A DNA stretch of 53,369 nucleotides, filler included, from Jimgerdemannia flammicorona (lineage: Eukaryota), in the NCBI GenBank assembly GCA_003990765.1. It is 3 parts of 3 records of this genome, joined end to end, with 100 filler letters (N's around TTAATTAATTAA, not from the genome) between each part and the next. Parts side by side here need not be neighbours in the genome. Positions count along the whole stretch, not along the records: positions 17,824 to 35,546 come from RBNJ01002438.1; 2 more parts are not named here. The stretch is one strand, 5' to 3'. Shown here one piece after another: positions 7,027-52,845 of the stretch. The notes under the pieces were generated by a model, which had not been told where the DNA came from, did not search any database, and worked only from the letters and a program-made list of their open reading frames with translations. Position 1 is the stretch's first letter, and every line of letters starts with the position of its first letter. Position numbers and translations under genes: made by a program.

Positions 7027-7345
7027 TCGATTTGGATTTGTTTTGTTTGTGTTTATTTGTGATTTTTATCCTGCAACTGGGATTGGCTCCCCCTTTATCT
7101 CCACCTATCTCCGGCAGTCATGTGGTTCCTAATTCGGTTCACCCCGAGTTGTGGCACATCCTCCCTTTTGGGATGTCATATTTTGTATATAAGGACTGCA
7201 TTTTTACATAGCAATAAATGGCTGATGCATTTTCGGTTATGTTCTTTGTTCATCCCCCTTATACACGCTTTTCGCATGTCTTCTGTTCGCTTTGACACTG
7301 GCTCTGGATTCGCTCCCTTGGCTCCCGCTGGGCCTTCTTCCTCCT
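7013..7345 (+). repeat. Inverted partial pseudo-LTR
   Basis: Reverse complement of 6526-6859, overlapping the direct copy by the 14-mer GATGTTTTTTAATC. Confidence 0.93.
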
Positions 7346-7346
7346 T

Positions 7347-10980: not shown

Positions 10981-11019
10981 CAATGGGAAGATTTCAAAAT
11001 TGATGTGACTTTTCAGCTC

Positions 11020-12210
11020 TTTTTTTTTGTTTAACAGACTCATATCCCATGGATTTTTATTGGAAGGGAACCTAGACTATATAGGCCAAAACCCTCCCCC
11101 ACCACCCACCAAGCACTGCCCCCCCATTAACCTAGACTAGCTATTGTCCAGCAGCTCGACTATGTCAGGCGCAGCAGAGTTGATAAGCCCGCACCTCATT
11201 CTGCACACTATGCTCTCCCTACCACCAGGGGAAACCCAACCATATGCCAACGACCAAAAGTGTATGCCTGAGAACCCAACGTATGTACAAGGCCACGCCC
11301 AAGCTGAATAGAATAGCCCCTGCCACCCCAAAAAGAATGACAGGCAAATAAAAAACCCTCATCAAAGCACAATATGGTGGGTAGGGCCTGGTTCTCCCAG
11401 TTGAGGTGAGTAAAGGACTTACACATAAGGTGGGAGGAAACCCCCAATACCCCACTACTCAAGCCTGTGGGCCTCAATCACGTTGTCATGTCAGCTCCCG
11501 GTTCCAGTTGAGTGTAGCCAAGATGTCTGAAATGGGTAGCCTCGGGCCTCCTGACCCCCCCTGATGACTGGGGCCCAACCCTGCTGACTGCCAAAAGAAG
11601 CCGATAGTGACACCTACTACCTAACCACACTGCACCAATCAAAAGACCCCACCGAAGCAGCACCTGCCCCAGCCCTGACGACTGCCCCCAGCCTGGCACC
11701 CTACTGGTTCACCGTAATCACCCTTCCACCTATCTGTGATGGCCATCTTCCCTCCCATCCCAACAACACCCGAAAAGCAGTCACCTACGCCAGAACCGCA
11801 CTCGCCGGGAAGCTCGCCAAAGCCAGAGGGCCCCACTACAGGCACCGAGGACCTGTAAGTAACCTACACTGAGCACTTGATGCCCAAGGTCGGCCGACTC
11901 CCTATCTAGCCTGAGACATACTGAGACAACTCCTTGTTGGCAATGGCAAAAGGAAGAAGGCGCCGCACTAAAACGGGTACACCCCAGACACAGCTGAAGG
12001 CACTAGAATCTGCGAAAAAGTGGAGGAAGCACCGATCTGATACTGATAAAGGGGCAACTCATCACCATTGCCCTTCTCCCACCATGCCCCTGCAGGCACA
12101 GCAAACCAACCTGAGGTAGAGGGGGTAATATTAGGGGAAAGGAGACTCGGAAGGTCGCCTACCAAATCTTGTGACCAGTAAGGTAGCGGAGAAAAGAGCA
12201 ATCAGACTTG
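11020..12210 (-). mobile_element. Non-LTR retroposon insertion with poly(A) tail and 15-bp TSD
   Basis: TSD GTGACTTTTCAGCTC at 11005-11019 and 12211-12225; T-run at 11020-11028; 3' end resembles 40478-40644. Confidence 0.85.
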
Positions 12211-12733
12211 GTGACTTTTCAGCTCACAAGAACTCACAGTCAAACTAGATACATTTGATACAATACCAATCTCTGCCACCACAGGAGAACTAGTTATCAC
12301 CAGCATCTGGACAAGAAGAGAAGTAATCACATCAAGACTTACCAACTACCCAGCATCAGAAGGATCTCAACCAGAACCAGAAACCAGTATAGCCCAAAAT
12401 CCCCAACTAGATCAACCAGACAATACAGGTGGTCCTGTTGGAGATTTTGAAGAACTTGCACAAGAACTAGAAGATCTTATTATATAAGCCTGAGATCTTA
12501 TAGCCAGATACTCCATTTTAGTCCTACCAATCTCACCAATAGAACCTTTACCACCAGTCTTTGCAGAATTGAAAGTAGCTTCTACAAGAATACCTAGGCT
12601 TATTGCACTCTATCTAAGACCCAGAACACCATCCTCAGGATACCCAAGCACCCCCATCTCCAGTGACAGCTCAGAAAGTGAATCAGAATCAGAATTCAGA
12701 CCAGAACCAGAATCAGAAGAAAGTGATAATAAA

Positions 12734-15700: not shown

Positions 15701-17715
15701 GACATGCAACCTGCCAAGGATAGACAGAAGATACCACCAACTTCATGGAAGTCCTAGACCCTACAAGAAGAAGAGAAATCAATTATCTCTAAGACCCCTC
15801 CACTGGAGCCAGGTGGTCACACCTCAATCTTAGAGCCTGGAGGCTCTCTGCTAGTAGAGCCTCAGCTCAAGGACAGCCTGAACTCAGCAAGGATATTGCC
15901 CAGTATACTCTGCTACATCCCAAGGCCAAACCCCCGACCAAAGTATACCCAGAGGATGTAGGGTATGATCTTTACAGTCTGGAGGATGAATCTATCAAGC
16001 CTGGAAAAAAATTTATAATCAGAACCAGGCTAGCCATGCAGCCACCCCAAGGAGCTTACATCCAACTGATCTCAAGGTCTAGACTTACCAGACAAGGAAT
16101 AACTATAGAAGGAGAAATCATTGACCCAGGATATACAGGTGAAATCAAGGTTATCCTACACAACAGCAGTACAGAATGGCACTGAATTATTAGAGGACAG
16201 AAGATTGCCCAATCAGTCTTCATGAAGGTCAAGACCCTACAATTACAAGAAGTCTCTGAACTGACTGAAGGAACAAGACAAGCCAAAGGATTTGGGAGCT
16301 TAGATAAGAAAGAAGTACATCTCCTTCAAGTCAATCACCTCAAGAGGAATGTTCCCCAGCAAGTATACTGCCAACCAGTCAAACTGCACAAGAATCTAAT
16401 TCTGGAGCCTGGAGAACAAACTACCTTTGAAATCTTTGCACCACCTGACCCCAGGAATCTTTTCTTCAAACCCAATAAAGATATTCCACACTTGGATATA
16501 GAAGAACACACATTCCCTGACAAGATGAATCTAGTGCACTCCCAAGCAATCAACCAAAGTTGGGAAACCATCATCTTGTCAAAAGGAACTATCATAGGAC
16601 ATCTGGTGCCTTTTCTCAACTGAACTTATAGGAAATTTTATGAACTAAACCTATTGGGAAATGGCAAAAGGTCTCAGAAGAAAGGAAAGGCCCCTCTGCG
16701 ATCCAGGAGACAGTGAAGCCTTCCACCACCATTGGAGAAGAATTGACACCCCAGCAACAGTAACAACTAGTAGAACTTCTCAACAAATATCAAGATATCT
16801 TCACTACTAATTATGGCCTTTCTTTGGTACAATAAGTATAGGGCTGGCCCAGGGGCTGGTAGAGGGTCAGATGACTCCATTGTTTAAGAGTTCTTAAATG
16901 TGCTCCTTTTTGAATGTTTTTAAGTAATGGGGTATTCTATAGAGTTTCTGATGGATGAGTGTTGCATTTTCTGTATTGATGCTATAGTGATATAATGGAT
17001 TGTAAGGATAGAGACTCTGTGTAGATTACAGGAAACTCAATTCAGTCACCAAAAAGGATGCCTATCTTTTGTCCAGAATCGATGACCTTTTGGATCAGTT
17101 ACAGGATGCCAGATACTTCAGCAGTATGGATCTTTTTGCAGGATTCCATAAGATCCCCATGGACCTAAGAGATTCAAAAGACAACCTTCCTTGCTTTAGG
17201 AAAACTGTTTAAATACCTCTGAATGTCTTTTGGACTTTGCAATGCACCCCCCCACCTTTCAGAGGATGAATTCAGTCTATACCCCCTTGATCCACCACTG
17301 TCTGATTATATACATGGACAATTCCAATATCTATTCAATAAATTTCAAAGAATACCTATACTATCTAGAGGAATTCTTCAAGCTCACCTGCAAGAACCAC
17401 TTGAGACTAAATGTAAATAAATGCTACTTTGGGAAACAGAAACTTGAATTCCTTGAATTTATGGTTTTGAAAGAAGAAATCCATGCAGACCTGAAGAAAA
17501 CTGAGAAGATCAACAATTGGCCAGTACCCAAGACCCCAAAGGAAACACTATCATTCCTGATGCTAGTATCCTACTATAGAAGGTTTATCAAGGACTTTGC
17601 TCAAATTGCTGCCCAAATCTGGATCCTTCTCAAGAAAGAAGTATCATTAAAATAGACAGAATCATAAGAAATAGCCTTCAAAGAACTCAAGAACTATATG
17701 ACTACAGCACTAATC
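12734..17715 (+). pseudogene. gag-pol of gypsy family B (gag, degenerate zinc knuckle, protease, Cys-rich insert, dUTPase, RT)
   Basis: MATSLPTFTG...DPREFL (gag), ILIDTGAAV (protease, about 14281), LCVDYRKLN (about 17015), IYMDN (YxDD remnant), FLMLVSYYRRFIKDFA; many stops. Confidence 0.9.
15898..16305 (+). pseudogene. Trimeric dUTPase domain within pol, between PR and RT
   Basis: All five motifs present: VGYDL, ISRSRL, EIIDPGYTGEI, KIAQ, RQAKGFGS. Confidence 0.9.
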
Positions 17716-17723
17716 TTTTTTTT

Positions 17724-17823
17724 NNNNNNNNNNNNNNNNNNNNNNNNNNNNNNNNNNNNNNNNNNNNTTAATTAATTAANNNNNNNNNNNNNNNNNNNNN
17801 NNNNNNNNNNNNNNNNNNNNNNN
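17724..17823. other. Artificial contig linker N44-TTAATTAATTAA-N44
   Basis: Six-frame stop linker embedded in Ns. Confidence 0.99.
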
Positions 17824-20800
17824 CCCCCCCCAGCGACCGCAACTAGATGTTTGAGAATTACATCTTCGACATACCCACCACTCGCGTGTTCCGCAAAATC
17901 GTGGGAGCCGGCTTGGCACTCCAGCGCTTGAAACTGAACAATTTGGGGCACTGCTACCTCTTTGCTCCCTCGCATTCTAATTAGATCTCGACACGAGGGC
18001 GTAGGGTCCATTGTTTTTGACGTCAATTTCCCACCAACGGCGTGTATTACGTCGTGGTCTGGCCGCTCACCAAGCAGTCCGCGTGAAAGACCTCAGCCTA
18101 CCTCGGCTGGTTATGCACACTGTCATTCTTGATTACTGAGAACGAATACGCCGGGATATCGTTCAGGGAGACAATATGCACACTGATCTTGCGCGATATA
18201 TGATCGAACCGCGTAAAAGCCTACCTCGGGTTTGTCGCCATCCAGACTATGACCTCTCACTCATTTCCCACAGCAGCCCCGAGTTGGGGGGTTTTATTAC
18301 ATGGTCTTCGAGCAGGTCCATCAAACCCCTTCGGCTTGGTCTACAACATTGCGGACAGCTTATATGCCAAGCCTTTCGATAAATACATCGAGGACGCGGT
18401 TATCATCCGTTATCTTGTTATTATTATTGTTATTATTAAGATATCAAATAAATGAATGGCAATATAATATATAATTCCTTAAAATAAAAAATATTTATTA
18501 TTTCACATAAAGTTCGTATTGAACGACATTGCTACGCTTTCTATAACAAATATGTCACTTGACGCTGAGGAATACACTCCCATGCGATCTCTTCTTTCTC
18601 TTCATTTCTTTACTTGTTAGGCGTCGCGCGAAGAATGCGTATTGGGGGTATTGTTTGTTTGATGAGATTGCGGTCGTGAATACGGACGAACAGCGCCAAT
18701 ACCATCCATACTGTTATGCTACGAGCAATCTAATCCATACCAACACCATTGAATCTAGACCAGAAAGTGATATATATTCAACAATATTGGATTGCCAGAC
18801 ATCCACAAGACCATATGATGGAAAAAATAATAAGAGTCAGAGTTAAGGCATTATAAACTGCCAGTATTATCTCAGTAATCATCATCAACAGAAACTCACA
18901 ATCTCAAGAACAGAAGAGAGAAGATTTTCTTGAGGAACTTACTAAGATATTTCCTGAAATAAATATATATTTGAAAGATGTAGTTAAGGAAATTCAAAGA
19001 AATCAGAGACTAGTCTAAAATTTTATCACTACAATTGAAAGAATTTCTATCACTTATTTTAAGTATAGAGAAAAAGACTACTATATAAGATATTGTATAA
19101 ATGAAAACCAATTATAAGATTCAATAAAACAATACTATTAGAAATTAGCTAATATAATTACCTTTAAAGAAATTAAGAGATTAAATAATAATAAAGATAT
19201 ATAAATAAGAGATAGACTCTATTTATATATATATAATAAACTTAAAAGAAATTAGTTGGAAAATTAAAGAAGAATTAAATATTAATAGTTATTAAAAATC
19301 TAAGTAATTAAAAAGTTAATATATATAATATTTAAATATTAGTTAGTAAAAATCCTAGCCTTTAGATATATAATAAATAAAAACTAAACTATTTAGAATT
19401 ATTAAAAATTAAGACTTCAAAAATATAAAAATTAATAATGCTTAAAAAATTAAAATATTAATCTATATTATTTATTAAATTGAAGATTAAAATTTTAATA
19501 TAATTATTAATAATAAGTAAAAAATAGTCAACTATTTAAAATAAAAAATAAAAAATAAAATAAAACTAATATTTATTACTATAAATAAAATAAGAGTATC
19601 TATTATAATATAATAGATATATAATAGTAGATTTTCATATCTCTTCTTGATTCCTCAGAGTTACAGATAGTATTTGTCTAATCTCAATATCAGACTACCA
19701 GGGTGAGGCTTAAACTCTTTTGATCTGAGGTTTATTTACTCTAAATACTAGAGATATTTATATAAGTTTACTAACTATATATTGGCTAAGTTAAGACTTC
19801 TTTTTCTGTAAGTTATTTTATATAGTTATATAATCTATATACATATTTATATCTATATAATCTATATAACTATAAGATTAAGTAACTACTAATAATAATA
19901 TTATACTATATTGAAAATCAGATTCAGATACTATAATCAAATATCTATCCTCTGATAGTTATTTCTAATTCAGATTATATATTATAACTTTTTCTAAATA
20001 GATGATCTCATTCTTGAGACATTCTATTCAAACTTAAAAATATATAGTTTATTTCTTCTAAATAGATAGTAATATATATTTAGATGCTAAAAATGAATAA
20101 TAGACTTATAGGTTTTTTTGAAACAGTAGTTATATATCTTATTACATAGTCATATGTAGGTAAATTTGTAGATATTATCAGATAGATAATCTTATCATTC
20201 AGATATATAATCTATATCCAAATTATGTCTAAATTTGACTGCAGGTAATTCACTGGAAAGAATATATACAATTGAAACCTATAACTAATAACTACTATTT
20301 GAATATATATATGTATAACTTTATTCAGAAATATATAGTTGAAAATAAAGATAAATACAGAATACTAACAATCAATAAGTACAGGATATATAATTATAGA
20401 ATAGTAAGTACAGAATAACAATGATGAGCTAGAAGATAATATAATATCAATAATGATAAGTATATAATGATAGCTATAATAGTAAGTATATATATAATAA
20501 TAATAATAATAATAGATATATAATAATAGTGATAATAGTAAATATATAATAATAATAATAATAATAATAACAATAATAACAGTAAGTATACAATAAGAGT
20601 AATAATAAAAGGTAGTAAAAAAAAAAAAACTATATAAAATAAAAAAATAATTCATATCTTAGATAACAACTATAATATGAAATGCTAAGAGTAATGTAGA
20701 ATACTGGGAGGTAAAGTATTTATATAATGAGTTGAAACTATCTTGCAAACTTCACAATAAAGTTAGAACTATATAGAGATTACTTTGATATAGAATACTA

Positions 20801-21518: not shown

Positions 21519-23172
21519 TATAATGGTGACCCCAGAATGATGACATCAGTATAAGAGACAGTCTTTCCTCACAAGCCATTAGATTGGAGCACAAGGAGAT
21601 CATATGGCATATGAGATGAGCAATGATGACTAACTGTGAGTCATTATGACTACAGTACAAACATCCTGAAGAATATAAAAGAAGGATCAAGGAACTACCA
21701 AGATATCTTGGTCAAGGAAAGAATATTCCAAGACATCAGAAGAGCCATGAGGACCTGCTCAAGAAGGACTCCTAGTGTCAACCTAGGTACTGCAGATCCC
21801 TATCACTTTATCCTCTACTGCTGTGAAATAGAAATAAGGATCACTATTGCCACCAAATGTCTTCAAATGTGGCAGGAGTATGAAATAGAAAACCTCCTCT
21901 GCTGGGAGTTCCCACAGACCAGCACTCAAGAGCTACAAGATACCACTCTTATGGATATATGTGAAATGAGGACAGCTAAGAAGATCCATCAGATCTTCAG
22001 ATATGTATCATGGTTGATCCCCAACTTGGAGTATATTAGAGTCTCAGACTTCAGAGATCTGTTATCCTATCATATCAATGCACTAGAAGTCAGGGTAGCT
22101 ACAGAAGCCCAGTCCACTATTACTCTCAATAGTGATAAAGTAGAAGACTTCTGGCATTCCATCCTTCAGGACAACCCAGACCAATTTCTGCAAGGATTGA
22201 TCTCAGTATTCTAAGGCCCAAGCATCCAGGTCAGACCTCCCCAAGACTCCATATTTGTTCCTTATTTTGTAGAAGAAAACCTTATAGATTAGAGAGCCCC
22301 CAATTTCCCTACTGAACATGATGATGTCATTGGTGATGATATCATCCTGCACAACATTGAAACATGTGAAGTACACAAAACATATGACCTATATAATGAA
22401 TTCGCAGATCTTATCTCCTTCAGTGATGATGAGGATGAAGCCTCCATGATCCTGAACTTTCTGCTCTAAGTTCTTTGTTACACTGAATAATGCCACCACT
22501 GGTATTTTGATGTAACACTGAATAATGCCAGCACTGATATTCTGAGGTGACACGAAATTGTTCCAGCACTGGCATTCTGATGTAATACTGAATTATACCA
22601 GTATTCTGAATCTGTACAACCATCAGTGCCGACCCTGGAACTTAGTAGTTTTAGTTATTGGAATTTATATTTAGCTTTATATCTTAGTAACTATTGAATT
22701 ATATTTTGTATAAATATCTCTCTTATTTCCTTTGAAATAAAGTCAGTCAACTCAGTGTAATATACATACTTCCTTGCAAGCAATCTAAGAGATAATAAGA
22801 CAGTTTAAAGATAAGAAGTTTAAGAACTATAAGACCTTGGGAAGGCACTCCAATAAGAACTTGCTTATAATAAACTTGTAGTTAGTCTAAGAGATATACC
22901 TTGAAGAGAATCTGATATATTTGAAGGACTCAATATCCACTATATAACAATATATATAATATAGTCCCCTCAGTCAACTCAGTGCAATACACACTTCCTT
23001 GTAAGCAATCTAAGAGATAACAAGATAGTTAAAGATAAGAAGTTTGAGGACTATAAGACCTTGGGAAGGTACTCCAATAAGAACTTACTTATAACAAACT
23101 TGAGTTAGTCTAAGAGATATATCTTGAAGAGAATCTGGTGTATTTGAAGGACTCAGCAATTACTATGTGACA
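21519..23172 (+). repeat. 5' LTR of family A (contains accessory ORF remnant 21636-22469 and duplicated R-U5)
   Basis: Matches 28872-30595, 43834-45335 and 50412-52416. Confidence 0.93.
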
Positions 23173-23292
23173 ATTTGGTGCCCATTGGCTGGTGATTCAA
23201 GATGAATCCCTCACTTTCAAGCTGAAAAACAAACAATCCCCACAATAACTACCCTGATTACAAGAGTCACCCCTATAAGAATTCAAGACAAG

Positions 23293-26200
23293 ATGGAAAT
23301 GCATCTCCCCACATTCTATGGATATACTACTGAAGAGTCAATTCTGACCTTCATTGAAGACTTTGAACAATTTGCTGCCATATGAGCCCTTGGTATGGAT
23401 GCTCAATTAGCCCTTCTACCAGTCAGCCTCAGAGGATCTACCAGAGATAAGTTCAATGTAGCTACTATTGCTGATGCTGGTGCAGCCAAACTTATCAACA
23501 TGAAGACCTTTCTCAGAACAACATATTATACTGAAAAGATCAAGCAAGCTCTTAAAGATCAACTCAATACTATTTGCCAGAGACTTAGTGAAGATCCCAA
23601 CTCATTCTATACCTGAATCTGCCACCAGATTGTCTTGGCTGGCTATGATGACCATCTCAAGGAACAAATAGTGGATTCAACCTTCCTTAAAGGAGTTTAC
23701 CCTGAAATTACCCTAGCAATCTGGTCTACCCCAGCTGCACTGACCCTTGATCAGAAAGTGGTCTTTGCACAGAGATATTGGACTGCCAGACACCCTGCCA
23801 AACACTCAATAGAGAAAATAACTGACATCAAGATGGAGCCATCAAAGCTAACTAGTATCATACCTGCCACAGTTGTAAACAGACAACTAACCCCACCTAC
23901 CCCCAAGATAGCCAAAGCTGACCCAGTGGAGGAACTCACCAAGTAGTTCGCTGAGATGACTACATACCTTAATGATGTTGTTAGAGAAGTCTGAAGTGCC
24001 AACAGGAGACCAGTACAGAGATTTGCAGCTACTACAGAAGAATACAATATCACATACTTCAGATGTGGAGAAGAAGACCACTATGCAAAGAGTTATATGA
24101 CCAAAACAAGATGCAAAGCCCAACCAAGTAATGCTAGTAGAACTAGAGAACAAACCAATGCAGTAGTCATTGAGGAGATTGGTGACACTGATGATGAAGA
24201 ATACTATGAGGAGCTCGAATTCTATCCTGCTACTGAAGGTACCAGAACCTGGTCTAAGCCCTATGACAAGAAGAGCAACAGTAAGCCAGTTGGAAGACCA
24301 AAGAAGACCCCAGCTGTCACTATTCAAAGCAAGACCCAACCTGAGGAGATTAATCAAGACATGGAGTTAGATGAAGCTGCCTGTCAAATCATTGAAGGCA
24401 CTACTCCAGTCTCAGAAGAAAGTGAAAGCAAGAAGGAACAGAAGCTGCACAAGACCAAGATTCACCAGTATGATATCTACAAGGACCTCAAGGAACAAAA
24501 GGTCAATGCTACTTTTGGTCAACTAGCTGAAGTCCCTGTCTTCAGACAGCAGTTGAGAGTAGGACTTGCAACTATTGCCAAGAATCAAGAGTACAAGATT
24601 TTAGAAGCTCACAATGTATAGGAAGAATCCAAGAACTCAGGTGAAGAATCCAAAGACCAGCACAAGACATCAGCCTATACCTCATGTCAGATTGAAGACT
24701 GTATCTTTGATGCCATCATTGATACTGGTGCTAGAGGATGCCTCATGAGTAAGAAAGCAATTAACTGCCTAGGTTGGGACATTGAAGAGTCCACCAAGAT
24801 GGTCTATATCACGGCAGATGGTACACAAGCTACCCCACTTGGCAAAATCCGAGAAGTCCCCATCAAGATAGGAGGAGCTACCATCCCAGTAGATATAATT
24901 GTTACAAGTACCACCAACTATAATATCCTCATTGGCAACCAATGGCTTTACAAGGCCAAGGCCATCATTGACCTCAATGTCCAGAAGATGCAGATTAACT
25001 ATAGAGGAAGAAAGGTATGAGTCTCTATCAATGTTCATAAAGGAGTTCTACCAGACATGGAGAAAGGAGATGAAGAGGACACAGAGGTCTTCATGCACTT
25101 GGTGAACAAGAACAAGAATAAGACACCCAAGCTCACAGATGAGCAGTGGTACAATAAGATCATCGATGGGTATACCCCTCAAGAAAGATGCCTCTATGGT
25201 ACTAAGATATACTGCTCTGAACACCTGAATGACTGCTGGTCCTGTATCAGTAAAGTCAGGAAAATAAACCAACAGAAACATGAGCAAGAAGCCACTGAAG
25301 CAAAAAGGAAAGCTGAAGAAGATGACCAGCCCCCAGAGCTTCAAGCTGACAGCAATGATGAGGAGGAATAAGAATCAGACATTACTCTCAAGGTTAAGAA
25401 GTTTCACCCTGAAGCCAAGATCCCAGAATATAAGACTGAAAAAGCCATAGGAATGAACCTTACCAGTATTTAAGATACTACTCTCAAACCACAGACCACC
25501 ACTCTACTTGGCACTGGAATTGGAGTCAAGCTGCCAAAGAACCATGCTGGAATTATCAAGACCAGGAGCAGTCTGACCAAAAGTGAAATCTCAGTTGAAA
25601 GAGGAGTAATTGACCCTGATTACACTGGCAAGATCTTCCTCATAGTCAGAAATTACAACCACACCACCCCTTTTGAGGTCAAGAAGTATGACAGGATTGG
25701 CCAGATGCTGATCCACGAAATCAAGAAGCTCAAGATCATAGAAGCCATCAAACTCATCAAGACTGAGAGAGGAGAACAAGACTTTGGATCTACTGGAAGA
25801 GGAGTCTATACTGCCACCAAGATTACTGAACTTGAGCACAAGAAAGACAAGAACCAGAACAAGTACACATACACTATTGGAGAAAATTTCCCCCTGGAGG
25901 AACAACTTCTCAAGATCCTGCATCAGAATGAAGGAGTACTTGCTACAGACTTCCAGGATATCCATAATCAAGAACCCAAGTACTATTACAAAGTTGACAC
26001 TAGTGATACTAAGCCCATCTACCAGAAAGCCAGACCCATACCACCTGCCTATAGAGAATGGCTGCAAGCAGAACTCAAGAAAATAGAAGAAGCTGGAATC
26101 ATCAAGCAGACTATCAGCCTCTGGGCCTCACCTATTGTCCTTGTCTCAAAGAAAGGAAGCAAGCCTGGAGAGTTTGCACCAAGACTCTGTATTGACTACA

Positions 26201-28558
26201 AGAAGCTCAATACTATCACCAAGAAGAATAGGTAGCCTTTACTGAATATTCAAGAAATCCTTACCACCCTTGAAAGTGAAGCCAAATATTACACTACCTT
26301 GGATCTATTCTCAGACTTCCATCAGATTGATCTCACTCAAGATGCCAGTGAGAAATCAGCCTTCATCACACCTAACGCCACCTATATCTACCTGCAAATG
26401 CCATTTTGAATGTGCAATGCCCTAGCAAGTTTCCAGTGAATGATGAACAGAGTCTTCAGCAATGAGATTGGAAAATGGCTCTTTGTCTATGTTGATGATG
26501 TGATTATCTTCAGCAACACTGCACAGGAACATATCAATCACATACAGCTAGCCCTCAAGAAGCTCAAAGAGTATGGCCTCTATATCAAGCCCAAGAAATA
26601 CAAGTTTGCAGCCCAGGAAATTGCCTATCTAGGACACCTTATCAACCAGACCAGAATCCATACAAACCCCATGAAGATTGAGGCTGTTGCAGCCTATCTG
26701 AAACCCAGAACAACCACAGAAGTCCATGCCTTCCTTGGACTAGCCAGCTACTATAGAAGGTTCATTAAAGGATACTCCAATATTGCAGCACCCATCTATG
26801 AGCTACTGAAGAAGGAAACCAAATTCAAGTAGACTAAGGAGCGCCAAGAAATCTTTAATGAACTCAAGACCAGGTTGACCCAAGCACCCATCCTCAGAAG
26901 ACCAGACTGGAATCTAGAATTCATCCGGTAGACAGATGTGAGTGCTATAGGACTTAGAGCAGTCCTAGCTTAGAAGAAAGATGGACATGAATATGTCATC
27001 TCCTATATAAGCTGAGGTACCCACAGAGTAGAACAGAACTATGAGTCATGCAAGCTTGAATGCTTAGCAGTAGTTTGGATAGTAGATAAGTTCCATTACT
27101 ACCTAGCCAGAAAATACTTCACCATTCAAACAGACCATTCTGCTCTCACTTGGCTATTCCACACTCTGAACGCCAAAGGAATATATGTCAGATAGATCTA
27201 CAGGCTGCAAGAGTATGACTGTACTGTCAAGCACTGCTCAGAAAAGACCAACACCAATGCCAATGCACTCTCAAGGACACCCCGAAACACCCCCATCAAG
27301 ACCATTCAACATGAATAAGAAGCTATACTATGGATTAATCAGCTATCTTGGGCAGTAGAAGATGCTCAACTATCTTGAACCCTAGACAATCACTATCATC
27401 AACTAGACTTGGAAACAGTTTGAATTAGACAACACTATACTCAGAAAAAGAGAAAAGCTAGTAATACCCAAACACAAAAAGTATCAAGTAATGAAGAAAG
27501 TATATGAGCAAGGACACTTAGGAGGAACCAATACATACAACAAAGCAAGAAGAACCATATGGTAGTCCAAGATGGAAGAAGACCTGTGCCAATTTGTCAA
27601 AGGATGTGACAAGTGCCAAAAACAGAAACAAGATCAGCAAGACCAAGCATCCAGGTCATCAAGAATTGAGCCTATCCCCTTCTACCATATTGCAATAGAT
27701 ATCATTGGACCACTACCAGTAACACTATCAGGAAACCACTATATTATAGTTATTGTAGACCTCTTCACTAAATAGATAGAGGCAGGAGCATTATAAGAAG
27801 CCAATGCCCTCTCTATAGCTGACTTCCTGTATTGAGAAATCATCTGCTGCTATAAGACACCAAAGCAAATCACAACAGACTACAGCATGGAATTTGTCAA
27901 TAGATTCTATGAGATAATGTATTAGAAATACAAGATCCAGTACATCAAGACCACTACATACCACCCTTAAGAAAATGGACAGACAGAGAGAACCAACAAG
28001 ATCCTTAAGAACATCCTAGCAAAGATCTCAGAGACATATGAGAATTGGGATAACTATCTCCCAACCACCCTCTCTATCCTACAAGACATATGGTCACAGA
28101 GTACACACTTTACCCCAAGAGAGCTGCTCTTTGGAGAAGAAGATTCTGATGGAACCTCAGCTATAAATCTAGACCTAACTTAGAGATGAGTTGATGCAGA
28201 AATCTGGAGACTACACCAAATCAGAAAGAAGGCTGAAGATTATATCACCAAGTCACAAGCACTGACAAGAAAGAATGCAGAAAAGATTCACAAGGCCCTA
28301 GAACCCATTCGAATCAGAGAAAAGATTCTACTATATCAAAATATGATAGAAGCCTCATGGTTGTGAAAACTAGAGCCCAAATGGAAAGGACCCTTCTATG
28401 TGCAAGATATCAAGGGAACTATCTTCTGGCTTAGAAAAATCTCAGAGACTATACTGCCTACTACAGTACATAGGAACAGACTCAAGAAGTACTACAAACC
28501 TATACAAGAGAAGCAAAACATGATGACTGCCTGTGAGATTCTAGTCCGCAAATCGTAA
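23293..28558 (+). pseudogene. gag-pol of gypsy family A
   Basis: LPTFYG (gag), YFRCGEEDHYAKSY (CCHC remnant), AIIDTGA (PR), LCIDYKKLN and YVDD (RT), TDVSAIGL (RNase H), CDKCQ, IAIDIIGPLP, NGQTERTN and WKGPF (integrase). No chromodomain seen. Confidence 0.95.
25384..25797 (+). pseudogene. Trimeric dUTPase domain within pol, between PR and RT
   Basis: AIGMNL, KTRSSL, GVIDPDYTGKI, DRIGQ, RGEQDFGSTG. Confidence 0.92.
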
Positions 28559-28569
28559 CAGTATGTCCC

Positions 28570-28893
28570 ATGACCAGCAGGCTATCTGTCTGGACCATTC
28601 TCTAAGGGATATGGCACTGGCAACTACTCATCCATGAGACTTTCGAAGTTAGAGGAGTTCAAACCATCAACTGATTGGTCAAGATCAGAATCAGGCCCTT
28701 GTTTTATATGAAGAGAGCGACTCTTTACCATTATGCCAAAATACAAAGAGAAGACATCAGCTCATAAATATCACTTTTTGACCCCTTGCTAGAGGTTATG
28801 GGATCAGCAAATTTTTCAGAACTGAACCAATGAATAAGAATGCTCAAGAAGATCCTTATTCAGGAGGAAGATGTAACAGTGACCCCAGAATGA
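28570..28893 (+). pseudogene. Putative accessory ORF3a (about 107 aa) between pol and the 3' LTR, crossing the PPT
   Basis: ATG 12 nt after the pol stop. Frame MTSRLSVWTIL*GIWHWQLLIHETFEVRGVQTIN*LVKIRIRPLFYM...EEDVTVTPE* has four internal stops, all TAA/TGA revertible to CAA/CGA. Confidence 0.5.
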
Positions 28894-30595
28894 TGACATC
28901 AGCACAGGAGACAGCCTTTCCTTACAAGCCACCAGATTGGAGCATAAGGAGATCATATGGCATATGAGATGAGCAATGATGACCAACTGTGAGTCATTGT
29001 GACCACAGTATAAGCATCCTGAAGAATATAAAAGAAGGATTAAGGAACTATAGTAGTAGTAACCAATAAGAACCACCAATCCCAAAATAGCTCAAAGACT
29101 TACCACAAATGAAATGCCTACTACTTGCCAAACCTCAAGGTCAAGAAACCACTAAGGCATCTCAGTCAAGGAAAGGATATTCCAAAACATCAGAAGAGCC
29201 ATAAGGACTCACTCAAGAAGGACTCCTAGTGTCAACCTGGGTACTGCAGATCTCTATCACTTTATTCTCTACCACTATAAAATAGAAACAAGGATTACCA
29301 TTGCCACCAAATGCCTCCAAATGTGGCAGAAGTATGAAATAGAAAACCTCCTCTACTGGAAGTTCTCACAGACCAGTACTTAAGAGCTACAAGATACCAC
29401 TTCTATAGATATATGTGAAATGAGGATAGTTAAGAAGATCCATTAGATCTTTAGACATACACCATAGTTGATCCCTAACTTGGAGTATGTTAGAGTCTCA
29501 AACTTCAGAGACCTGTTATTCTGCTGTATCAATGCACTAGAAGCCAGGGTGGCTACAGAAGCCCAGTCCACTATTACTTTCAATAATGATGAAGTAGAAG
29601 ACTTCTGGCATCCCATCCTTCAGGACAACCCAGACCAATTCCTACAAGGATTGATCTCAGTATTCCAAGGCCCAAGCATTCAGATCAGACCTCCCCAAGA
29701 CCCCACATTTGTTCCTTATTTTGTAGAAGAAAACCTCATAGATTAGAGAGCCCCCAATTTCCCTGCCAAATATAATAATATCATTGGCAATGACATCATC
29801 CTGTGCAATATCGAAATATATGAAGTATACAAAATATGTAACCTATATGACAAATTCACAGATCTTATCTCCTTCAGTAATGATGAGGATGAAGCCCCCA
29901 TGATCCTGAACTTTCTACTCTAAGTTCTTTGTTATACTGAATAATGCCACTACTGATATTTTGATATAACACTGGATAATATCAGCACTGGTATTCTAAT
30001 GTGATACTGAATTATACCAGCATTCTGAACCTGTACAACTATCAGTACCAACCCTGGAACTTCATAGTTTTAGTTATTAGAATTTATATTTAGCTTTATA
30101 TCTTAGCAACCATTGAATCATATTTTGTATAAATATCCCTCTTATTTCCTCTGAAATAAAGTCAGTCAACTCAGTGCAATACATATACTTCCTTGCAAAC
30201 AATCTAAGAAATAATAAGACAGTTTAAAGATAAGAAGTTTGAGGACTATAAGACCTTGGAAAGGTACTCCAATAAGAACTTGCTTATAATAAACTTATAG
30301 TTAGTCTAAGAGATATATCTTGAAGAGAATCTGATGTATTTGAAGGACTCAATGCCCACTATATGACAATGTATATAATATAGTTCCCTCAGTCAACTCA
30401 GTGTAATATACACTTTCTTGCAAGCAATCTAAGAGGTAATAAGACAGTTAAAGATAAGAAGTTTGAGAACTATAAGACCTTGGGAAGGTACTCTAATAAG
30501 AACTTACTTGTAACAAACTTGAGTTAGTCTAAGAGATATATATATCTTAAAGAGAATCTGGTATATTTGAAGGACTCAGCGACTACTACATGACA
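28872..30595 (+). repeat. 3' LTR of family A
   Basis: TGTAAC...TGACA, follows the PPT and is followed by ATAT. Confidence 0.95.
29114..29923 (+). pseudogene. Accessory ORF3b (269 aa) wholly inside LTR U3
   Basis: ATG to TAA is exactly 270 codons. The same frame is kept in the solo LTR (44076-44897) and the 5' LTR (to 22469), with premature stops mostly at different positions in different copies. Confidence 0.8.
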
Positions 30596-37315: not shown

Positions 37316-37826
37316 TTGATGTGTGCGAAAAAGTTGCAGCGTTGGTCTCCGTTATTAAAAAGCGTTGACTTTTTGGCGTCAGTCGTCCCACAGGCTCTAT
37401 ATATTGGAATGGTGTCACGTGCCCATGCGATTTACATGGTATCATAGAAAGAAAATAGATAATATATTTTAATATGATTACATTCTCCAGCATAAAGAAT
37501 ATTTTTATCTATCTTATAATTATATTTAAATATTACTATATTAGATTAAAAAGTAAATAATAATAATAATAATAATTTAATATTTAATATTTATTTATTA
37601 ATCAAATTATATTACTTATATTTTTTTTAATTAAAAAATTAAAATATTTTTTTTAAAAAATATATATTTATAACAATATTGATTTTGGATTTTTAAATTT
37701 TCCAACTTTAAAGTTCTAGTAATCAAGAGATATGTAGAGAATTCTCTAAATTCTTTACGATGTGGCTGGTTGGGAACAAAAGAGGAGCACAGGCCTCTTC
37801 CTCCATCTACACACACAGAGTACAGC

Positions 37827-38444
37827 ATGACTGACCAGCTTACCAATGAACAGATTGCCGAGTACCGTGAGGCCTTCAACCTGTTCGACAAGGTATATAT
37901 GGGCGGTGGTGGGAGACAAGCGGGGATTGTGTACGTGTCATACGTCACGAGGAAGGAACTCACAATACCTCGTCGCTCTCTACGTGACTGTACTAATCTC
38001 CAGAATCACGATGGCACCATTTCCTCCACGGAACTCGACATAGTGCTCAAGAGTTTCGGCCAGAACGAGACGACGGCGCAACTCCAAGAAATGATTAACG
38101 AAGTCGACGCCGACGGAGACGGCAGAATTGACTTCTCCGAGTTTCTGACCCTCATGTCCCGGTACGTGCACACCTCGTAGTGACTGAATACTCCACACGC
38201 GTACGCACCTATCACGCGATCCACAACGACCACCCCACTCTGCTCGCTCTTTCTTCGAACCCAGTTCCCTTAAGGAGACTGAGGAGGACGACCTGCGCGA
38301 GGCGTTCAAGGTCTTCGACACGGACAGCAACGGTCTCATCAATTCCGCGGAGTTGCATCAGGTCTTAAACTCGCTCGGCGAGAAGCTGACGAACGATGAG
38401 GTGAATGAGAGTGAGTGTTATCCAGCTTGCATGCGGGGTGCTAG

Positions 38445-42099: not shown

Positions 42100-45000
42100 C
42101 TTTAAACACATATATATATTCCCAAATTGTTTCTGGTTTTAAAGCACTTCTTTTAAGTAATACAAGATCCCTACCATTAGAAAAGATTCTCTCAATTAGA
42201 GTACTTATTGCTGGGATGGCTAAATAGTCTCATGCTATTTTCACTAGATTTGGGAAATCTCCAATATAGCTCTAATGTTTTTGAATATATTTTAATTCAA
42301 ATTAAATATAATTCAATTTAAATATGATTCAAATTAAAATTCAACTTACTTGCTATCAAGATAATATATCAATTCTTGTTAGATATTCAACAATTTTACT
42401 TTTCAAATAAATATCTATCTTATGCTCAGGATTTGTCATCATTTTTTGTCTTTTGTTAAATATATGTTATTATAATGTAATATCAATATCATTGATTTCA
42501 GTATCTATAATATTATACTATTCTTAATAAACTAATCCAGAGAGAGGGATATAGGTTTCATTATAAGTTGTATAAATAGCTCTTTTTGTAGCCTCAACCC
42601 ATTTAGACTCCCATTCATGAGATATATAATATGATAGTTTAAGTCTAGGGTTAAGTACTGGTATATTCAAAGAAAAATAAATTAAAAATATAAAAATTCG
42701 AAATGTAAAATTCATATAGTTCTCAAGTTTCAAAATTTTACTTACCAGTATCAATATAATAAGTTGGAATATCTGTTATTGAATAATATATTTTCAACTT
42801 ATCAATAGCTGCCATTAGTACTAGATGAATAATATTTAATTACTCTCTAGTAGTATTCAATTGCTCATCTGTAGTTTTTCAAATCTTCTTATCATGCTCT
42901 TCCAACATATCTAGTAAGAAATTATAAATTGAAACAGTAGAATAGATTGTCGGATATTTTTCTTGAGCAGCAAGATCTGTTGCTATTTTGAAGCTCTTTA
43001 GAATTTTCACAGTATCTTTCAATATTTCTCAAGTATAGCTCCCAATAATATATTTTCTTAAGTCTTTATCTATAATAACAGTTGTAGTTAAAGGCTATAT
43101 ATTATAGAAAATAAATTTATTAGATTATTTGAATTGAATTTTGAATTAAATTTTGAATTAAATTTAAAAATAAATAAAAGACTTATATCTAAAAATTCTA
43201 AGATCTGCTCAATTATAGAATATGTTGAATTCTATTGAGTTTTAATATTTAAAATAAGTTCTTTCAGTTTGAGTCCAAATATTTTGCACTTCTTAACAAA
43301 TTTCTCTTAGTATAGTAAAGATAATTGAATCTTCATAACAATCATTCAAAGTTTTGAAATTTCTCTACTCTTAGTTATATCAATAGTATCTTAATTAGCC
43401 TTCAGATAGGTAAAAAAATCCTGAACAGCCAGATTAATGATATGAGCCATATATTATACATATTGTATTGATGGATAGTTTAGGCTAATATGATCAAACT
43501 CCTCATGAATTGTTTGAAATAAAACATTATTATTAGTTGCATTATCTATTATTATAGCCAATATCTAGAGTAAATAATTTAAAATATAAGATAATTTTTA
43601 AATATCAAACAATAATCTGAAAGTACAAAAATACTCTTTTTGAAAAATATATATCTTTGTCTATATACCAAAGTCTTTAATATACTTTAAGAAGATATCA
43701 GCAAGATTTTCACCTAAGTGAGATCCTGACAGCTCAATAAAATTAATCAATATAGAATTGAGTCACCAATTCTGACAGATTCAATGTGCATTAATTCTAA
43801 GAAATACATGCATATTTGGTGATGTCCATATATTGTAACAGTGACCCCAGAATGATGACATCAGCACAGAAGACAGTCTTTTCTTACAAGCCACCAGATC
43901 AGAGCACAAGAAGATTATACAGTATATGAGATGAGCAATGATGACCAACTGTGAGTCATTGTGACCATAGTATAAGCATCCTGAAGAATATAAAAGAAGG
44001 ATCAAGGAACTGCAGTAGCAGCAATCAATAAGAACCATCAATCCCAAAATAGCTCAAAGACTTACCACAAATGAAATGCCTGCTGCCCACCAAACCTCAA
44101 GGTCAAGGAATCACTAAGGTATCTCAGTCGAGGAAAGGATGTTCTAAGACATCAGAAGAGCTATGGGGACCTGCTCAAGAAGGACTCCTAGTGTCAACCT
44201 AGATACTGCAGATCCCTATTACTTTATCCTCTATCACTGTGAAATGGAAACAAGGATCACCATTGCTACCGAATACCTCCAAATATGGCAGGAGTACAAA
44301 ATAGAAAACCCCCTCTGCCGAGAGTTCCCACAGGCCAGCACTCAAGAGCTATAAGATGCTACTCCCATGGATATATGTGAAACAAGGACAGCTAAGAAGA
44401 TCCATCAGATCTTTAGGCATGCACTATGGTCGATTCCCAACTTAGAGTATGTTAGAGTCTCAGACTTCAGAGATCTGTCATCTTGCTGTATCAATGTACT
44501 AGAAGCCAGGGTGGCTACAGAAGCCCAGTCCACTATCACCCTCAATAGTGAAGAAGTAGAAGACTTCTGGCATCCTATCCTTCAGAACAACCTAGACCAA
44601 TTCCTACAAGAATTAATCTCAGTATTCCAAGGCCCAAGTATCCAGATTACACCTCCCTAAGACCCCACATTTGTTCCTTATTTTGTGGAAGAGAACCTCA
44701 TAGACTAGAGAGCTCCAGATCTTGTTCTTGATTTCTCTGCCAAATGTGATGATGTCATCAGTAATGACATCATCCCACATGATATCAAAGTATGTGAAAT
44801 GCATGACTTGCATGACAAATTCACAGATCTCATCTCCTTTAGTGATGATGATGATGATGATGATGAAGCCCCCATAATCTTGAACTTTCTGCTCTAAGTT
44901 CTTTGTTACACTGGATAATGCCAGCACTAGTATTCTGAGGTGATGCGAAATTATTCCAGTACTGGTATTTTGATGTGACACTAAATAATGCCAGCATCCT

Positions 45001-46080
45001 GAACCTGTACAACCATCAGTGCCACCCTTGGAACTTAGTAGTTTTAGTTATTGGAATTTATATTTAGCTTTATATCTTAGCAACCATTGAATTATATTTT
45101 GTATAAATACCCCTCTTATTTCCTCTGAAATAAAGTCAGTCAAGTTTATCTACACACTTTCTTGCAAGCAATCTAAGAGATAACAAAATAGTTAAAGATA
45201 AGAAGTTTGAGGACTATAAGACCTTGGGAAGGTACTCCAATAAGAACTTGCTTATAACAAACTTGAGTTAGTCTAAGAGATACACCTTGAAGAGAATCTG
45301 GTATATTTGAAGGACTCAGTGACCACTATATGACAATATCAAGAGTGAAGGATATTTAACCTAGTATATTCTATTTTCTAATGAATTAAATAAGATTCAG
45401 ATTATTAGAATTAAATTAAATTTGGATTATTTGAATTAAGATTTGAACTATTAAGATTTATCTGTAGTTTAATTTTGATAGCATTCCAACTTTGTTTGAA
45501 AGTTAATCTGATTTCATTTTGAATCATTCCAGTAGATGGAATAGTAATATCTGATTTCAAAAGGTGAAAAATATCTCTCAGTTCCAAATTCTCAACAACT
45601 GTGAAAGGCTGATTATCCTGAATAATCCAGTGAATAAGCTTCTCTTGAAATAATTGTATGTTGAATTTTGGTTATTATTATGATAAGAAAATTTTAAGTA
45701 ATAATAAATAAAATAGAAAAAAAAAAAAAAAAAAAAGATAAAGTAAATTAATAATACTTGTGAAAGGAATAAATCCATTGCTCCTGCTTGTTTAACTTTA
45801 TGGTTCTGAGTAAAATGGTCCCACATATTTGTTGTTGAACTATCTACCAGTTTATATATTGCTGAACAGTGATTGTATTTTACTCTAATTTTACTATTTT
45901 TGTCTATCTTTGTAAATTCTTTTCAGATCTCAGAGCATTTGTGTGGTTTTTCTTTTTCTTTTCCTTTTCTTCTCTCCATACTAGATTGTTGTAATAAGGT
46001 TATACTTATACTTGTTGAAGTTGTATCTATTGACACCAAGGCTGCTCTAGTATCTTCTATAGATAGTGGTAGTAGTGAAA
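42100..46080 (-). pseudogene. hAT transposase with BED finger and introns (limits approximate)
   Basis: SSTTNMWDHFTQNH (BED), FTLDIWTS (first catalytic D, split by solo LTR), IIDNATNN, MAHIINLAVQD, Q*NSTY, DYLAIPAISTLIERIFS (dimerisation domain). Confidence 0.9.
43834..45335 (+). mobile_element. Solo LTR of gypsy family A with ORF3b remnant (44076-44897)
   Basis: TGTAAC...TGACA with ATAT TSD; removing it restores the transposase codons TTC ACT CTT GAT ATA TGG ACA. Confidence 0.95.
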
Positions 46081-50411: not shown

Positions 50412-52845
50412 TATAACAGTGATCTCAGAATGATGATATCAGTATAAGAGATAGCCTTTTCTTGTAAGCCACTAGATCAGAACACAAGAAGATCATATGG
50501 CATAACTCAGGCTATGAGATAAGTAATGATGACCAACTGTAAGTCATTGTGACCACAGTTCAGATATCTTGAGGAATATAAAAGAAGAATCAAGAAACTG
50601 TAGTAGCAGTAACTCAATAAGATCCACTAATCTTAAAATAGCTCAAAGACTTACTATAAACAAAATGCCTGCTGCTTGCCAAACCTCAAGGTCAAGGAAC
50701 TACCAAGGTACCTCAGTCAAAGAAAGAATGTTCCAAGATATCAGAAGAGCCATGAGGACCTGTACAAGAAGAACTCCTAGCCTCAACCTGGATATTATGG
50801 ATCCTTATCACTTTATCCTCTACTGCTGTGAAATGGAAACAAGGATCACTATTGTACCAAATGCCTCCAAATGTGGCAGGAGTATGAAATAGGAAACCTT
50901 CTCTGCCAGGAGTTCCCATAGGCCAGCCCTCAAGAGTTACAAGATACCACTCCTATAGATATATAAAATAAGGACAGCTAAGAAAATTCATCAGATCTTC
51001 AGACATGTACCATAGTTGATCCTCAACTTGGAGTATGTTAGAGTCTCAGATTTCAGAGATCTGTCAGCCTACTGTATCAATACACTGAAAGCCAGAGTGG
51101 CTACAGAAGCCCAGTCCACTATTAACCTCAATAGTGATGAAGTAGAAGACTTCTGGTATCTCATTCTCCAGGACAACCCAGATCAATTCTTGTAAAGATT
51201 AATCTCAGTATTCCAAGACCCAAGCATCCAGATTAGATCTCCCCAAGACCCCACATTTGTTCCCTATTTTGTAGAAGAGAATCTCATAGACTAGAGAGCC
51301 CCAGATCTCCTTGTTTCTGCTATCACCAAATGTGATGATGTCATTGGCAATGACATCATCCCACATAGTGCTCCCAAATGAGTCAAATCAATTCAAATTG
51401 AATCGAATTGAGGGTTAAATGAGTCAAATCGAATTGGAGATTTTTCAATTTGAATCAATTTGAATCAAATCAAAAGTCGAATCGAATTGAGGGTCTGATT
51501 CGAACCCTAATTTTCAAAATGCAATAACTCAGCGTAAACTCATCCAAATCTAACATACTTTAGCTTGTTAGAATCACATTAATACGGTGAATCTAATAAG
51601 CTAAAATATATTAAATTTGGATGAGTTTTCGTCGTGTTATTATATTTTAAAAATTAAGGTTTGAATCGAACTTCGAATTGAATTGGACCTTTGATTTGAT
51701 TCAAATCGAATTGAATTGGACCCTTGATTCGATCGAATCGAATCGAGTTTGGGCCAAATTCGATTCGATTCGGTTCGTTGGGAGCACTAATCCCACAAAA
51801 TATATATGAAGTATACAAAACATATGACCTATGCAATGAGACTAAAATGTTTATGGACCTCATCTCCTTTGAGGACAGCAATGACAAGGATGAAGCCCCC
51901 ATAGTCCTGAACATTCTGCTCTAAGTCTCTTAGTTACACTGAATTATGTCAGTATCTTTTTTCTGTATAACAGTTATTCCTCCAACAGTATTCTGATCTT
52001 GTGACTCAGAATTATTCTAGTATCATTTTCCTATATCACTGAAATTATAGCAGTATCCTGAACCTGTGTAACCATCTGTGCCAACCTTGGAACTTGGCAG
52101 TTTTCTATGTTCTAGCATTTTATTTGGTTATTGAAATTTATATTTAGTTTTATATCTTAGCAAATATTGAATTATATTTTATATAAATATTCTTCTTATT
52201 TTCTCTGAAATAAAGTCAGTTCTGATTCACTTATATATAATTCTTTGCAAGCAATCTAAAAGATAACAAGATAGTTTAAAGATAAGAAGTTTGAGAACTA
52301 TAAGACTTTAGAAAGATACTTCAATAAAAACTTGCTTATAACAAACTTGAGTTAGTCTAAGAGATATATCTTGAGAATCTGATATATTTGAAGGACTCAG
52401 CAACTACTATATGACAACTTGGTACCCATTGGCTGGTGATTCAAGATGAATCCCTCACTTTCAAGCTGAAAAACAAACAACCTCCACAATAACTACCCTG
52501 ACTACAAGAGTTACCCCTGCAAGAATTCAAGATAAGATGGAAATACATTTCCTTACATTCTATAGATATACTACTAAAGAGTCAATCCTGATCTTCATTG
52601 AAGACTTTGAACAATTTGCTGCTATATGAGCACTCAACATGAATGCACAATTGGCCCTTCTATCAGTCAGCCTCAGAGGACCTACCAGAGATAAGTTCAA
52701 TACAGCTACCATTGCTGATACTGGTGTAGCCAAACTTGTCAACATGAAGGCCTTTCTCAGAACAACATACTATACTAAAGATATTAAACAAGCTCTCAAG
52801 GATCAACTCAATACTATTTGCCAGAAACTTAGTAAAGATTCCAAC
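50412..52845 (+). mobile_element. Second internal-domain-bearing gypsy family A copy: 5' LTR (50412-52416), PBS and start of gag
   Basis: Preceded by ATAT; matches 21519-23600; interrupted by a MITE at 51366 and a hAT end at 52846. Confidence 0.92.
51366..51789 (+). mobile_element. hAT-type MITE, 424 bp
   Basis: Perfect TIR TAGTGCTCCCAA/TTGGGAGCACTA; 8-bp TSD ATCCCACA (51358-51365, 51790-51797). Confidence 0.96.

Follow-up and report, generated by a model that had tools for sequence, protein, structure and literature searches.

A probable protein-coding gene inside the long terminal repeat of a dUTPase-bearing Ty3/gypsy retrotransposon family from Jimgerdemannia flammicorona

Introduction

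Can a Ty3/gypsy retrotransposon's long terminal repeat (LTR) hold a whole gene of its own? The question is raised by a stretch of 53,369 nucleotides (nt), filler included, from the fungus Jimgerdemannia flammicorona (assembly GCA_003990765.1). It consists of three parts joined end to end and is referred to here as the window. Positions 21519-30595 are occupied by a full-length LTR retrotransposon of the Ty3/gypsy type (Metaviridae), of the dUTPase-bearing kind. An original prediction, made from the sequence alone, had placed a reading frame of 269 codons in the U3 part of the LTRs of this family and a second, weaker one, ORF3a, between pol and the LTR. Accessory genes set 'complex' retroviruses apart from simple ones, and a whole gene in the LTR is rare even among retroviruses. 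As the best overall explanation of our data we consider it highly probable that a complete protein-coding gene resides in the LTRs of this dUTPase-bearing Ty3/gypsy family.

Results

A reading frame within all LTR copies of the window

Self-BLAST revealed four LTR copies of one family in the window, with an LTR length of ~1.7 kb:

21519..23172, plus strand: 5' LTR of the full-length element; starts with TATAATGG, a mutated TGTAACAG, and ends in GTGACA
28872..30595, plus strand: 3' LTR of the full-length element; reads from TGTAACAG to CATGACA, its end backed by contigs of other copies that leave at 30596
43834..45335, plus strand: solo LTR with ATAT on either flank
50412..52416, plus strand: fourth LTR, followed by a primer-binding site (PBS) and internal sequence

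A frame of ~270 codons lies wholly within the LTR, starting 243 nt into it and stopping ~670 nt before its end, and hence occurs in either LTR of the full element as well as in solo LTRs. When relatives of the encoded protein (see below) were used in tblastn, the frame was recovered in 4/4 LTRs, in line with its predicted presence in all of them, and the predicted places and lengths in the 3' LTR and the solo LTR proved exact:

29114..29923, plus strand: LTR open reading frame (ORF) of the 3' LTR; 810 nt, 269 codons and stop; in-frame stops at 29153, 29381, 29444, 29465 and 29744
44076..44897, plus strand: ORF of the solo LTR; 822 nt, 273 codons and stop; 5 in-frame stops
21696..22469, plus strand: ORF of the 5' LTR; a ~36-nt deletion took the ATG; 2 in-frame stops
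50665..51924, plus strand: ORF of the fourth LTR; a 1-nt deletion, a 2-nt deletion and a ~400-nt insertion

The insertion in the fourth LTR is located at about 51379-51786. None of the four window copies is open. The LTR frame holds 5, 5 and 2 stops, compared to 9-27 in each of the other five frames, and the indels inside it between the LTRs of the element and the solo LTR measure 12, 9 and 9 nt.

Further copies of the family with at least 85% identity are present as many short contigs (169 to 3039 pieces) in all four public runs examined, which are of DNA or unrecorded kind and three of which are labelled soil metagenome, the fourth being labelled with a coded organism. In the contigs of these copies the only indels within the LTR-ORF are +3, +6 and +3; outside the ORF, the LTR of these copies has four deletions of one base each. 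At 29381 they read C at all or nearly all depth in each of the three runs covering the site, so that the stop of the window copy becomes CAA.

Intact relatives in three subfamilies

A search with one X-masked copy against 5.8e9 proteins yielded 5 relatives among 78 candidates. P0006 (271 aa) is open and has W where all four window copies share a stop. A profile search of 1.84e9 cluster representatives gave six matches at E<=0.001, and a second profile search found 12 relatives among 8000 scored candidates. One of the six matches, P0014, is a low-complexity repeat protein, probably spurious, and was not counted. Taken together, the public protein sets contain 13 distinct relatives, a tiny family for 5.8e9 proteins, which fall into three subfamilies:

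Subfamily A, the window's own kind: P0005-P0010 and P0017
Subfamily B: P0011 and P0012
Subfamily C: P0013, P0015, P0016 and P0018

Identity of subfamilies B and C to the window copies is 27-42%. P0006, P0012 (342 aa) and P0015 (325 aa) are among the relatives that are open over their full length (271-342 aa) and begin with the conserved MP..R..QT, and the blocks W(H/Q)(E/D)YEI, AKKIHQ(I/V)FRH, LQDN.DQ(F/W)LQ and F(E/Q)GP.I are common to the subfamilies. In tblastn against 29114-29923 the E-values reach from 7e-109 (P0006) down to 5e-13 (P0015); P0011 (2.5e-46), P0012 (8e-36) and P0015 match the window in a single frame only. Since open full-length relatives with a conserved start exist in three subfamilies, the LTR frame is, judged by sequence comparison, a genuine coding gene that was formerly under constraint: unselected sequence this diverged would keep neither an open frame nor similarity at the protein level.

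The window copies of the LTR-ORF themselves are pseudogenes, killed by C>T/G>A hypermutation. Transitions account for 163 of the 164 differences between the 5' and the 3' LTR over 1620 aligned bases, and the two LTRs are 87.5% identical in self-BLAST. The ratio of observed to expected CpG is 0.04-0.08 in both LTRs of the full element, in its internal region and in the solo LTR, 0.32 in the fourth LTR, and 0.54 in L001, a metagenome contig from an independent copy that is described below. Going from L001 to the window, C>T was counted 105 times and G>A 86 times (191), against 40 T>C and 28 A>G (68). The C>T changes fall at CpG, CpA and CpC, and the decay looks like repeat-induced point mutation (RIP) or methylation-driven deamination. 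The commonest residue replacements (E>K, R>C, M>I, D>N, R>H) are of the same transition type. All 12 in-frame stops of the three alignable window copies lie in columns in which intact relatives have Q (8) or W (4), so each of them is a single transition away from CAA, CAG or TGG. Past coding constraint, as originally predicted, thus finds agreement in the intact relatives, the Q/W-matched stops and the in-frame indels; a C-to-T-corrected consensus was not needed, since intact relatives exist.

Stops or frameshifts in all four window copies might also be expected if there were no gene and the frame were a chance open stretch of LTR sequence. Such a stretch would not resemble 13 proteins, down to ~27% identity and with E as low as 1e-46 to 1e-125, nor would all of its stops be single transitions from Q/W codons and its indels in frame. 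We regard a chance frame as refuted by the relatives found, the protein-level matches and the Q/W-placed stops, and leave it a negligible probability.

The position inside the LTR is a family feature

Scans of viral and genome contigs yielded no DNA of the relatives, and one metagenome scan gave only L001. This contig of 2109 nt is colinear with 27139-29234 of the window at 84.6% identity. It contains, in this order, an intact integrase (IN) frame of 457 aa, a spacer, a polypurine tract (PPT) identical to that of the window, the LTR start, and the ORF start MPATRQTSRSRTHQG, after which the ORF runs off the contig end. According to these alignments the position of the ORF inside the LTR is a feature of the family in subfamily A, where it is common to copies ~15-25% apart.

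Between L001 and the window, transversions amount to 7.4-7.6 per 100 nt in the LTR and 1.3-1.6 in the internal part, so that by this measure the LTR is roughly fivefold more diverged; faster evolution of the LTR, or LTR exchange between lineages, might lie behind it. In the ESM Atlas, the cluster nearest to the L001 integrase by language-model features is eukaryotic, with Mucoromycota as the commonest phylum. Given also the soil metagenome runs, the host would be a soil fungus, probably of the Mucoromycota.

Signals around the ORF

Three blocks flank the ORF of the 3' LTR:

28894..29034, plus strand: promoter-like block upstream of the ORF; TGACATCA at 28894-28901, TGAGTCA at 28990-28996 and TATAAAAG at 29027-29034
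29930..30040, plus strand: degenerate tandem repeats of ~35 nt, immediately behind the stop of the ORF (22476-22601 with 3.6 copies in the 5' LTR)
30083..30175, plus strand: downstream block kept in 4/4 LTRs; TATATA-like elements, TATAAATA at 30128-30135 and AATAAA at 30155-30160

A TATAAA(A/G)G box stands ~87 nt before the ATG, within the first 240 nt of the LTR. These 240 nt are the most diverged stretch of the alignment between L001 and the window, yet the TATA box, TGAGTCA and the AAATGCC start context, and likewise TGACATCA, are kept in 5/5 sequences (the four window LTRs and L001). L001 has no ATG between the TATA box and the ORF start, and the additional ATG of the window at 29109 reads ACG in L001.

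From the motif positions, the predicted location of the ORF in U3 is plausible. Because a conserved TATA box precedes the ORF and a further TATA/AATAAA block follows it, the ORF may be in U3 with a promoter of its own or in a very long R. We propose that the LTR holds two transcription units. The upstream TATA box would drive an mRNA of ~1.1 kb for the LTR protein, while the genomic RNA would start further downstream, at the second TATA next to AATAAA and behind the 35-nt repeats. Both RNAs would end at one common poly(A) site, which would place the ORF in the U3 of the genomic RNA. In the 5' LTR, AATAAA would not act, because it lies too close to the second start.

Alternatively, a real ORF could be located in R. 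The upstream TATA box would then be the sole promoter, the genomic RNA would carry the ORF at both ends, the downstream AT-rich block would be only a fungal-type poly(A) signal, and the LTR protein would be made as the first cistron of the genomic RNA or from transcripts ending early in the 5' LTR. In favour of this, just one promoter-like block has several conserved motifs resembling factor sites, and it precedes the ORF; past the ORF, TATATA-like elements recur together with AATAAA, a combination that we take to resemble yeast-type polyadenylation signals. However, R would be ~1.1 kb long, and gag, with its ATG near 23290, would sit behind an ORF of 810 nt and many AUGs. The 35-nt tandem repeats just upstream of the second TATA are also placed like the enhancer repeats of many LTRs, and an AATAAA ~20 nt past the second TATA fits a signal used only in the 3' LTR. 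We therefore judge a location in R to have perhaps one chance in four and prefer two transcription units with the ORF in U3.

The LTR protein

AlphaFold2 models were of low confidence, with a mean predicted local distance difference test (pLDDT) of 35.7 for an alignment of 5 sequences and 44.1 for one of 12 sequences (32/342 residues at 70-90). In both models the helices span about residues 20-190 and the tail is unstructured; the protein is modelled as a helical domain of ~170 residues, at about 45-215 of P0006, with a disordered, strongly acidic tail. The net charge of the tail is -15, -21 and -22 across the three subfamilies. Subfamilies A and B have the conserved hydrophobic motifs DLI(S/T/N)F and (I/V)LNF in the tail; subfamily A ends in ILNFLL, and C is without the ILNF end.

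In a simple hydropathy test of 6/6 relatives no hydrophobic segment was found (maximum 19-residue Kyte-Doolittle mean 0.48-1.07), and the N-termini are hydrophilic. The protein is thus not env-like, since it has neither a transmembrane-like segment nor a signal-like N-terminus, in agreement with the original prediction that no signal peptide or membrane segment is visible. Pfam searches with three window copies and 12 relatives returned noise only (ATG5_HBR, E 0.04-0.09, below cut-off) and recognised no DNA-binding domain. A sequence profile search of the PDB gave no match at E<=10. Foldseek against the PDB, with the low-confidence model, gave none at E<=0.001, and the template modelling (TM) scores of 0.07-0.16 in the rows listed are meaningless. 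In the ESM Atlas, whose own model has a pLDDT of 0.35, the best feature score was 0.83, with no named family. No relative bears a name other than 'hypothetical protein'.

We propose that the protein is soluble and would serve the element in trans as an accessory factor. Most likely it would regulate the expression of the element itself, with a tail resembling an acidic activation domain, a tentative guess from composition to which we give no more than a modest chance. The Tas type of foamy viruses combines an acidic activation region with a DNA-binding region and acts on its own LTR, and export factors of the Rev/Rex type have an arginine-rich RNA-binding motif and a leucine-rich export signal. 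A role in RNA export, by analogy with the CERV protein discussed below, or in anti-silencing, which the original prediction named beside a regulatory one, may apply instead.

The same searches bear on the origin of the gene. One LTR lineage could have captured a host gene cassette with promoter, ORF and terminator that has no role for the element, and the promoter-like and terminator-like signals of the ORF would suit this. So would the missing similarity of the protein to the element's gag (hhalign probability 0.1%) or to any retroelement family of Pfam. On the other hand, no host-type relatives were found; all 13 relatives lie on short metagenome-type contigs (that of P0012 has 4848 nt), and longer or fused forms (600-2000 aa) were not found either, although this is weak evidence. 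The gene was kept open in three subfamilies as distant as about 27-36% identity, which is hard to explain for a passenger on a fast-turnover element, and in subfamily A it occupies the same LTR position in diverged copies. Hence a captured cassette appears unlikely, and a gene belonging to the element is favoured.

The region between integrase and PPT

A second accessory ORF, ORF3a, had been predicted to run across the PPT. This found no support: the frame from the ATG at 28570 has 4 stops in the window, and L001, which is not hypermutated, also has it broken into pieces of 22-24 codons. The sole ORF3a candidate is the following:

28563..28711, plus strand: remnant of a 49-codon frame just after the IN stop (28556-28558); frameshifted in the window

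Its counterpart at 1425-1574 of L001 is the only ATG-started frame there. It has 49 codons, opens five bases past the IN stop and closes ~160 nt before the PPT. That these 49 codons are open in L001 just behind the IN stop, in a spacer conserved about as well as IN (1.6 vs 1.3 transversions per 100 nt between L001 and the window), could speak for an additional small accessory ORF. The comparison is nevertheless limited to two sequences, the spacer differs by indels of 1, 1, 1 and 2 nt, one of which breaks the frame in the window, and the conservation runs past the stop of the frame, as fits a cis-acting RNA or DNA region by the PPT. The frame originally predicted across the PPT has stops in L001 as well. 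A spacer that is conserved like IN yet has indels of 1 or 2 nt fits a cis-acting region better than a gene, and we consider a small accessory ORF improbable.

Structure of the element

The assignment to Ty3/gypsy is confirmed by the order protease (PR)-dUTPase-reverse transcriptase (RT)-RNase H followed by IN, and by TG..CA LTRs, PPT and PBS, all of which were seen. The remaining parts of the full-length element are:

23176..23192, plus strand: PBS-like TGGTGCCCATTGGCTGG, 3 nt past the 5' LTR end
23173..28871, plus strand: internal region with many stops; one frame holds gag, aspartic protease, dUTPase, RT and RNase H, and the +1 frame holds integrase
25411-25797: dUTPase domain PF00692 between protease and RT (Pfam E 6e-24)
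28862..28871, plus strand: PPT AGGAGGAAGA, abutting the 3' LTR and identical in L001
30162..30597 in the 3' LTR and 22743-23174 in the 5' LTR, plus strand: a 227-nt unit, doubled in both LTRs of the full element

With X-masked frames, Pfam detected in order gag-asp_proteas (1e-8), RVT_1 (3e-25), RT_RNaseH (4e-24), Integrase_H2C2 (5e-12) and rve (3e-5). The contigs of other copies from the public runs depart from the window sequence at 30596 into the same PBS letters. Because the same PBS and internal sequence come after the fourth LTR, it represents the 5' LTR of a second copy extending in the direction of the window end. ATAT on both sides of the solo LTR may be a target-site duplication; the full element is flanked by (AT)n, so that the limits of a duplication are not definable. 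The 227-nt unit is single in the solo LTR, the fourth LTR and the contigs of other copies, and joints from 30166 or 30175 to 30406 occur in contigs of 2/4 public runs (X5 and X3).

The RT-RNase H frame closes with TAA at ~27311-27318 of the window and 173-180 of L001; integrase is read in the +1 frame, and an ATG precedes that stop by three bases (ATGAATAA). As this overlap of RNase H and IN is common to the window copy and to L001, in which the integrase is intact, it suggests a conserved +1 shift or stop-start rather than a lesion. The zinc knuckle of gag at 24060-24100 reads Y-x2-C-x4-H-x4-Y, which fits CCHC with the first and last Cys changed to Tyr by G>A.

Other features of the window

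At ~1989-8700, in AT-rich surroundings, the window turns GC-rich (46-57%) and the strands are strongly skewed. This region contains direct repeats (1989-2288 / 7347-7646, 97%; 2866-3165 / 6524-6823, 93%) and long minus-strand frames at 3363-5360 and 5378-6646, one of them with a YIDD-like motif. It has no Pfam match at E<=0.001 and is probably a retroelement too, of another type. The region ~11000-19000 holds a second retroelement, decayed and unrelated, which RVT_1 matches weakly at 17200-17652 (E 9e-4, below cut-off); relatives of the LTR protein were not found in its repeats. At 37683-38177 a calmodulin-like coding piece with EF-hand matches (EF-hand_1 4e-13, EF-hand_7 2e-12) is probably an exon of a host gene.

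Discussion

Such an arrangement is best known from a few complex retroviruses, and a close parallel to the layout described here is the sag gene of mouse mammary tumour virus (MMTV), which lies in the U3 of a betaretrovirus LTR and encodes a membrane protein of a vertebrate retrovirus. As in MMTV, the full coding frame is located inside the LTR and is hence duplicated at both ends. Unlike Sag, the LTR protein has no Pfam match at E<=1 beyond noise and no hydrophobic segment, and it belongs to a fungal Metaviridae element without env; moreover, the U3 position is a feature of sag, while here it is only plausible from motif positions.

Among Ty3/gypsy elements, Cer1 of C. elegans produces from a spliced Cer1 mRNA the protein CERV, which acts in trans on the element RNA (PMC10309623). 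Like CERV, the LTR protein is a lineage-specific accessory protein of a Ty3/gypsy element that belongs to no known family; the abstract, however, does not place CERV in the LTR (PMC10309623). No relation to CERV surfaced in the profile searches, none of which was aimed at it. LTR retrotransposons of bdelloid rotifers carry an ORF3 beside gag and pol, the typed ones being env-like, GDSL esterase or DEDDy exonuclease (PMC5408684), and fungal Gypsy elements with an 'add. ORF' have been listed (PMC2864245). These elements share with ours an extra ORF beyond gag and pol, and several of them also have a dUTPase (PMC5408684, PMC2864245). In contrast to the rotifer ORF3, for which the abstract names no LTR location, the gene reported here lies wholly inside the LTR and has no recognisable domain (PMC5408684). 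The same backbone, with the dUTPase between PR and RT, is known from dUTPase-carrying fungal Gypsy elements such as PosPlaTy3-5, and the passages on PosPlaTy3-5 mention no LTR gene (PMC2864245). A limited full-text search listed no paper on a Ty3/gypsy element or another LTR retrotransposon with an ORF in its LTR; among the papers listed, only those on MMTV came up for such ORFs. Within this literature search, a complete conserved LTR gene in Metaviridae and the new protein family appear to be new, which fits the earlier description of such genes as atypical for this group.

Several observations weigh against a gene that belongs to the LTR of this family and serves the element. The window copies of the ORF give 14 transversion columns (codon positions 6, 4, 4) and no dN/dS; a dN/dS from the window was rejected as uninformative, since these copies differ almost only by transitions that arose after insertion. 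The first 40 codons, the only part of the ORF with DNA from an independent copy, show 7.4 transversions per 100 nt between L001 and the window, compared to 7.6 in the adjoining non-coding LTR. Database proteins are the output of gene callers, here run on short contigs (567-4848 nt), so that the open copies are ascertained. The promoter and poly(A) sites are no more than matches to consensus motifs, and the location of the gene in the LTR is shown for subfamily A of the three. The basic N-terminus is unconserved, with a charge over 45 residues of +8 in A, 0 in B and +3 in C, and poor models with no family, PDB or fold match leave the proposed function conjectural. We nevertheless hold to a complete protein-coding gene in the LTR, which is the most probable of the readings considered.

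A further step would be to regard the family as a 'complex' fungal retrotransposon, in which the LTR itself is a small gene (promoter, ORF of ~270 codons, poly(A)) encoding a trans-acting regulator. We think this possible, though on balance doubtful. Such a regulator may be a transactivator, an RNA-export factor or an anti-silencing factor. If this is true, each integrated copy carries the gene twice, each solo LTR that recombination leaves behind remains a potential expression unit and could supply the factor to other copies, and, as far as our literature search reaches, no regulatory gene embedded in an LTR would have been described in Metaviridae before this one.

Genes of this kind would be missed systematically, since LTRs are masked before gene annotation; all relatives found here come from unmasked metagenome gene calls. 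A conserved, lineage-restricted LTR gene would show that simple-looking retrotransposons can evolve the layout of complex retroviruses, and a solo LTR would then be not only a promoter but a possible source of protein. The LTR gene of this family would be a concrete candidate for the means by which a retrotransposon controls its own expression, or silencing by the host, in a fungal genome rich in repeats.

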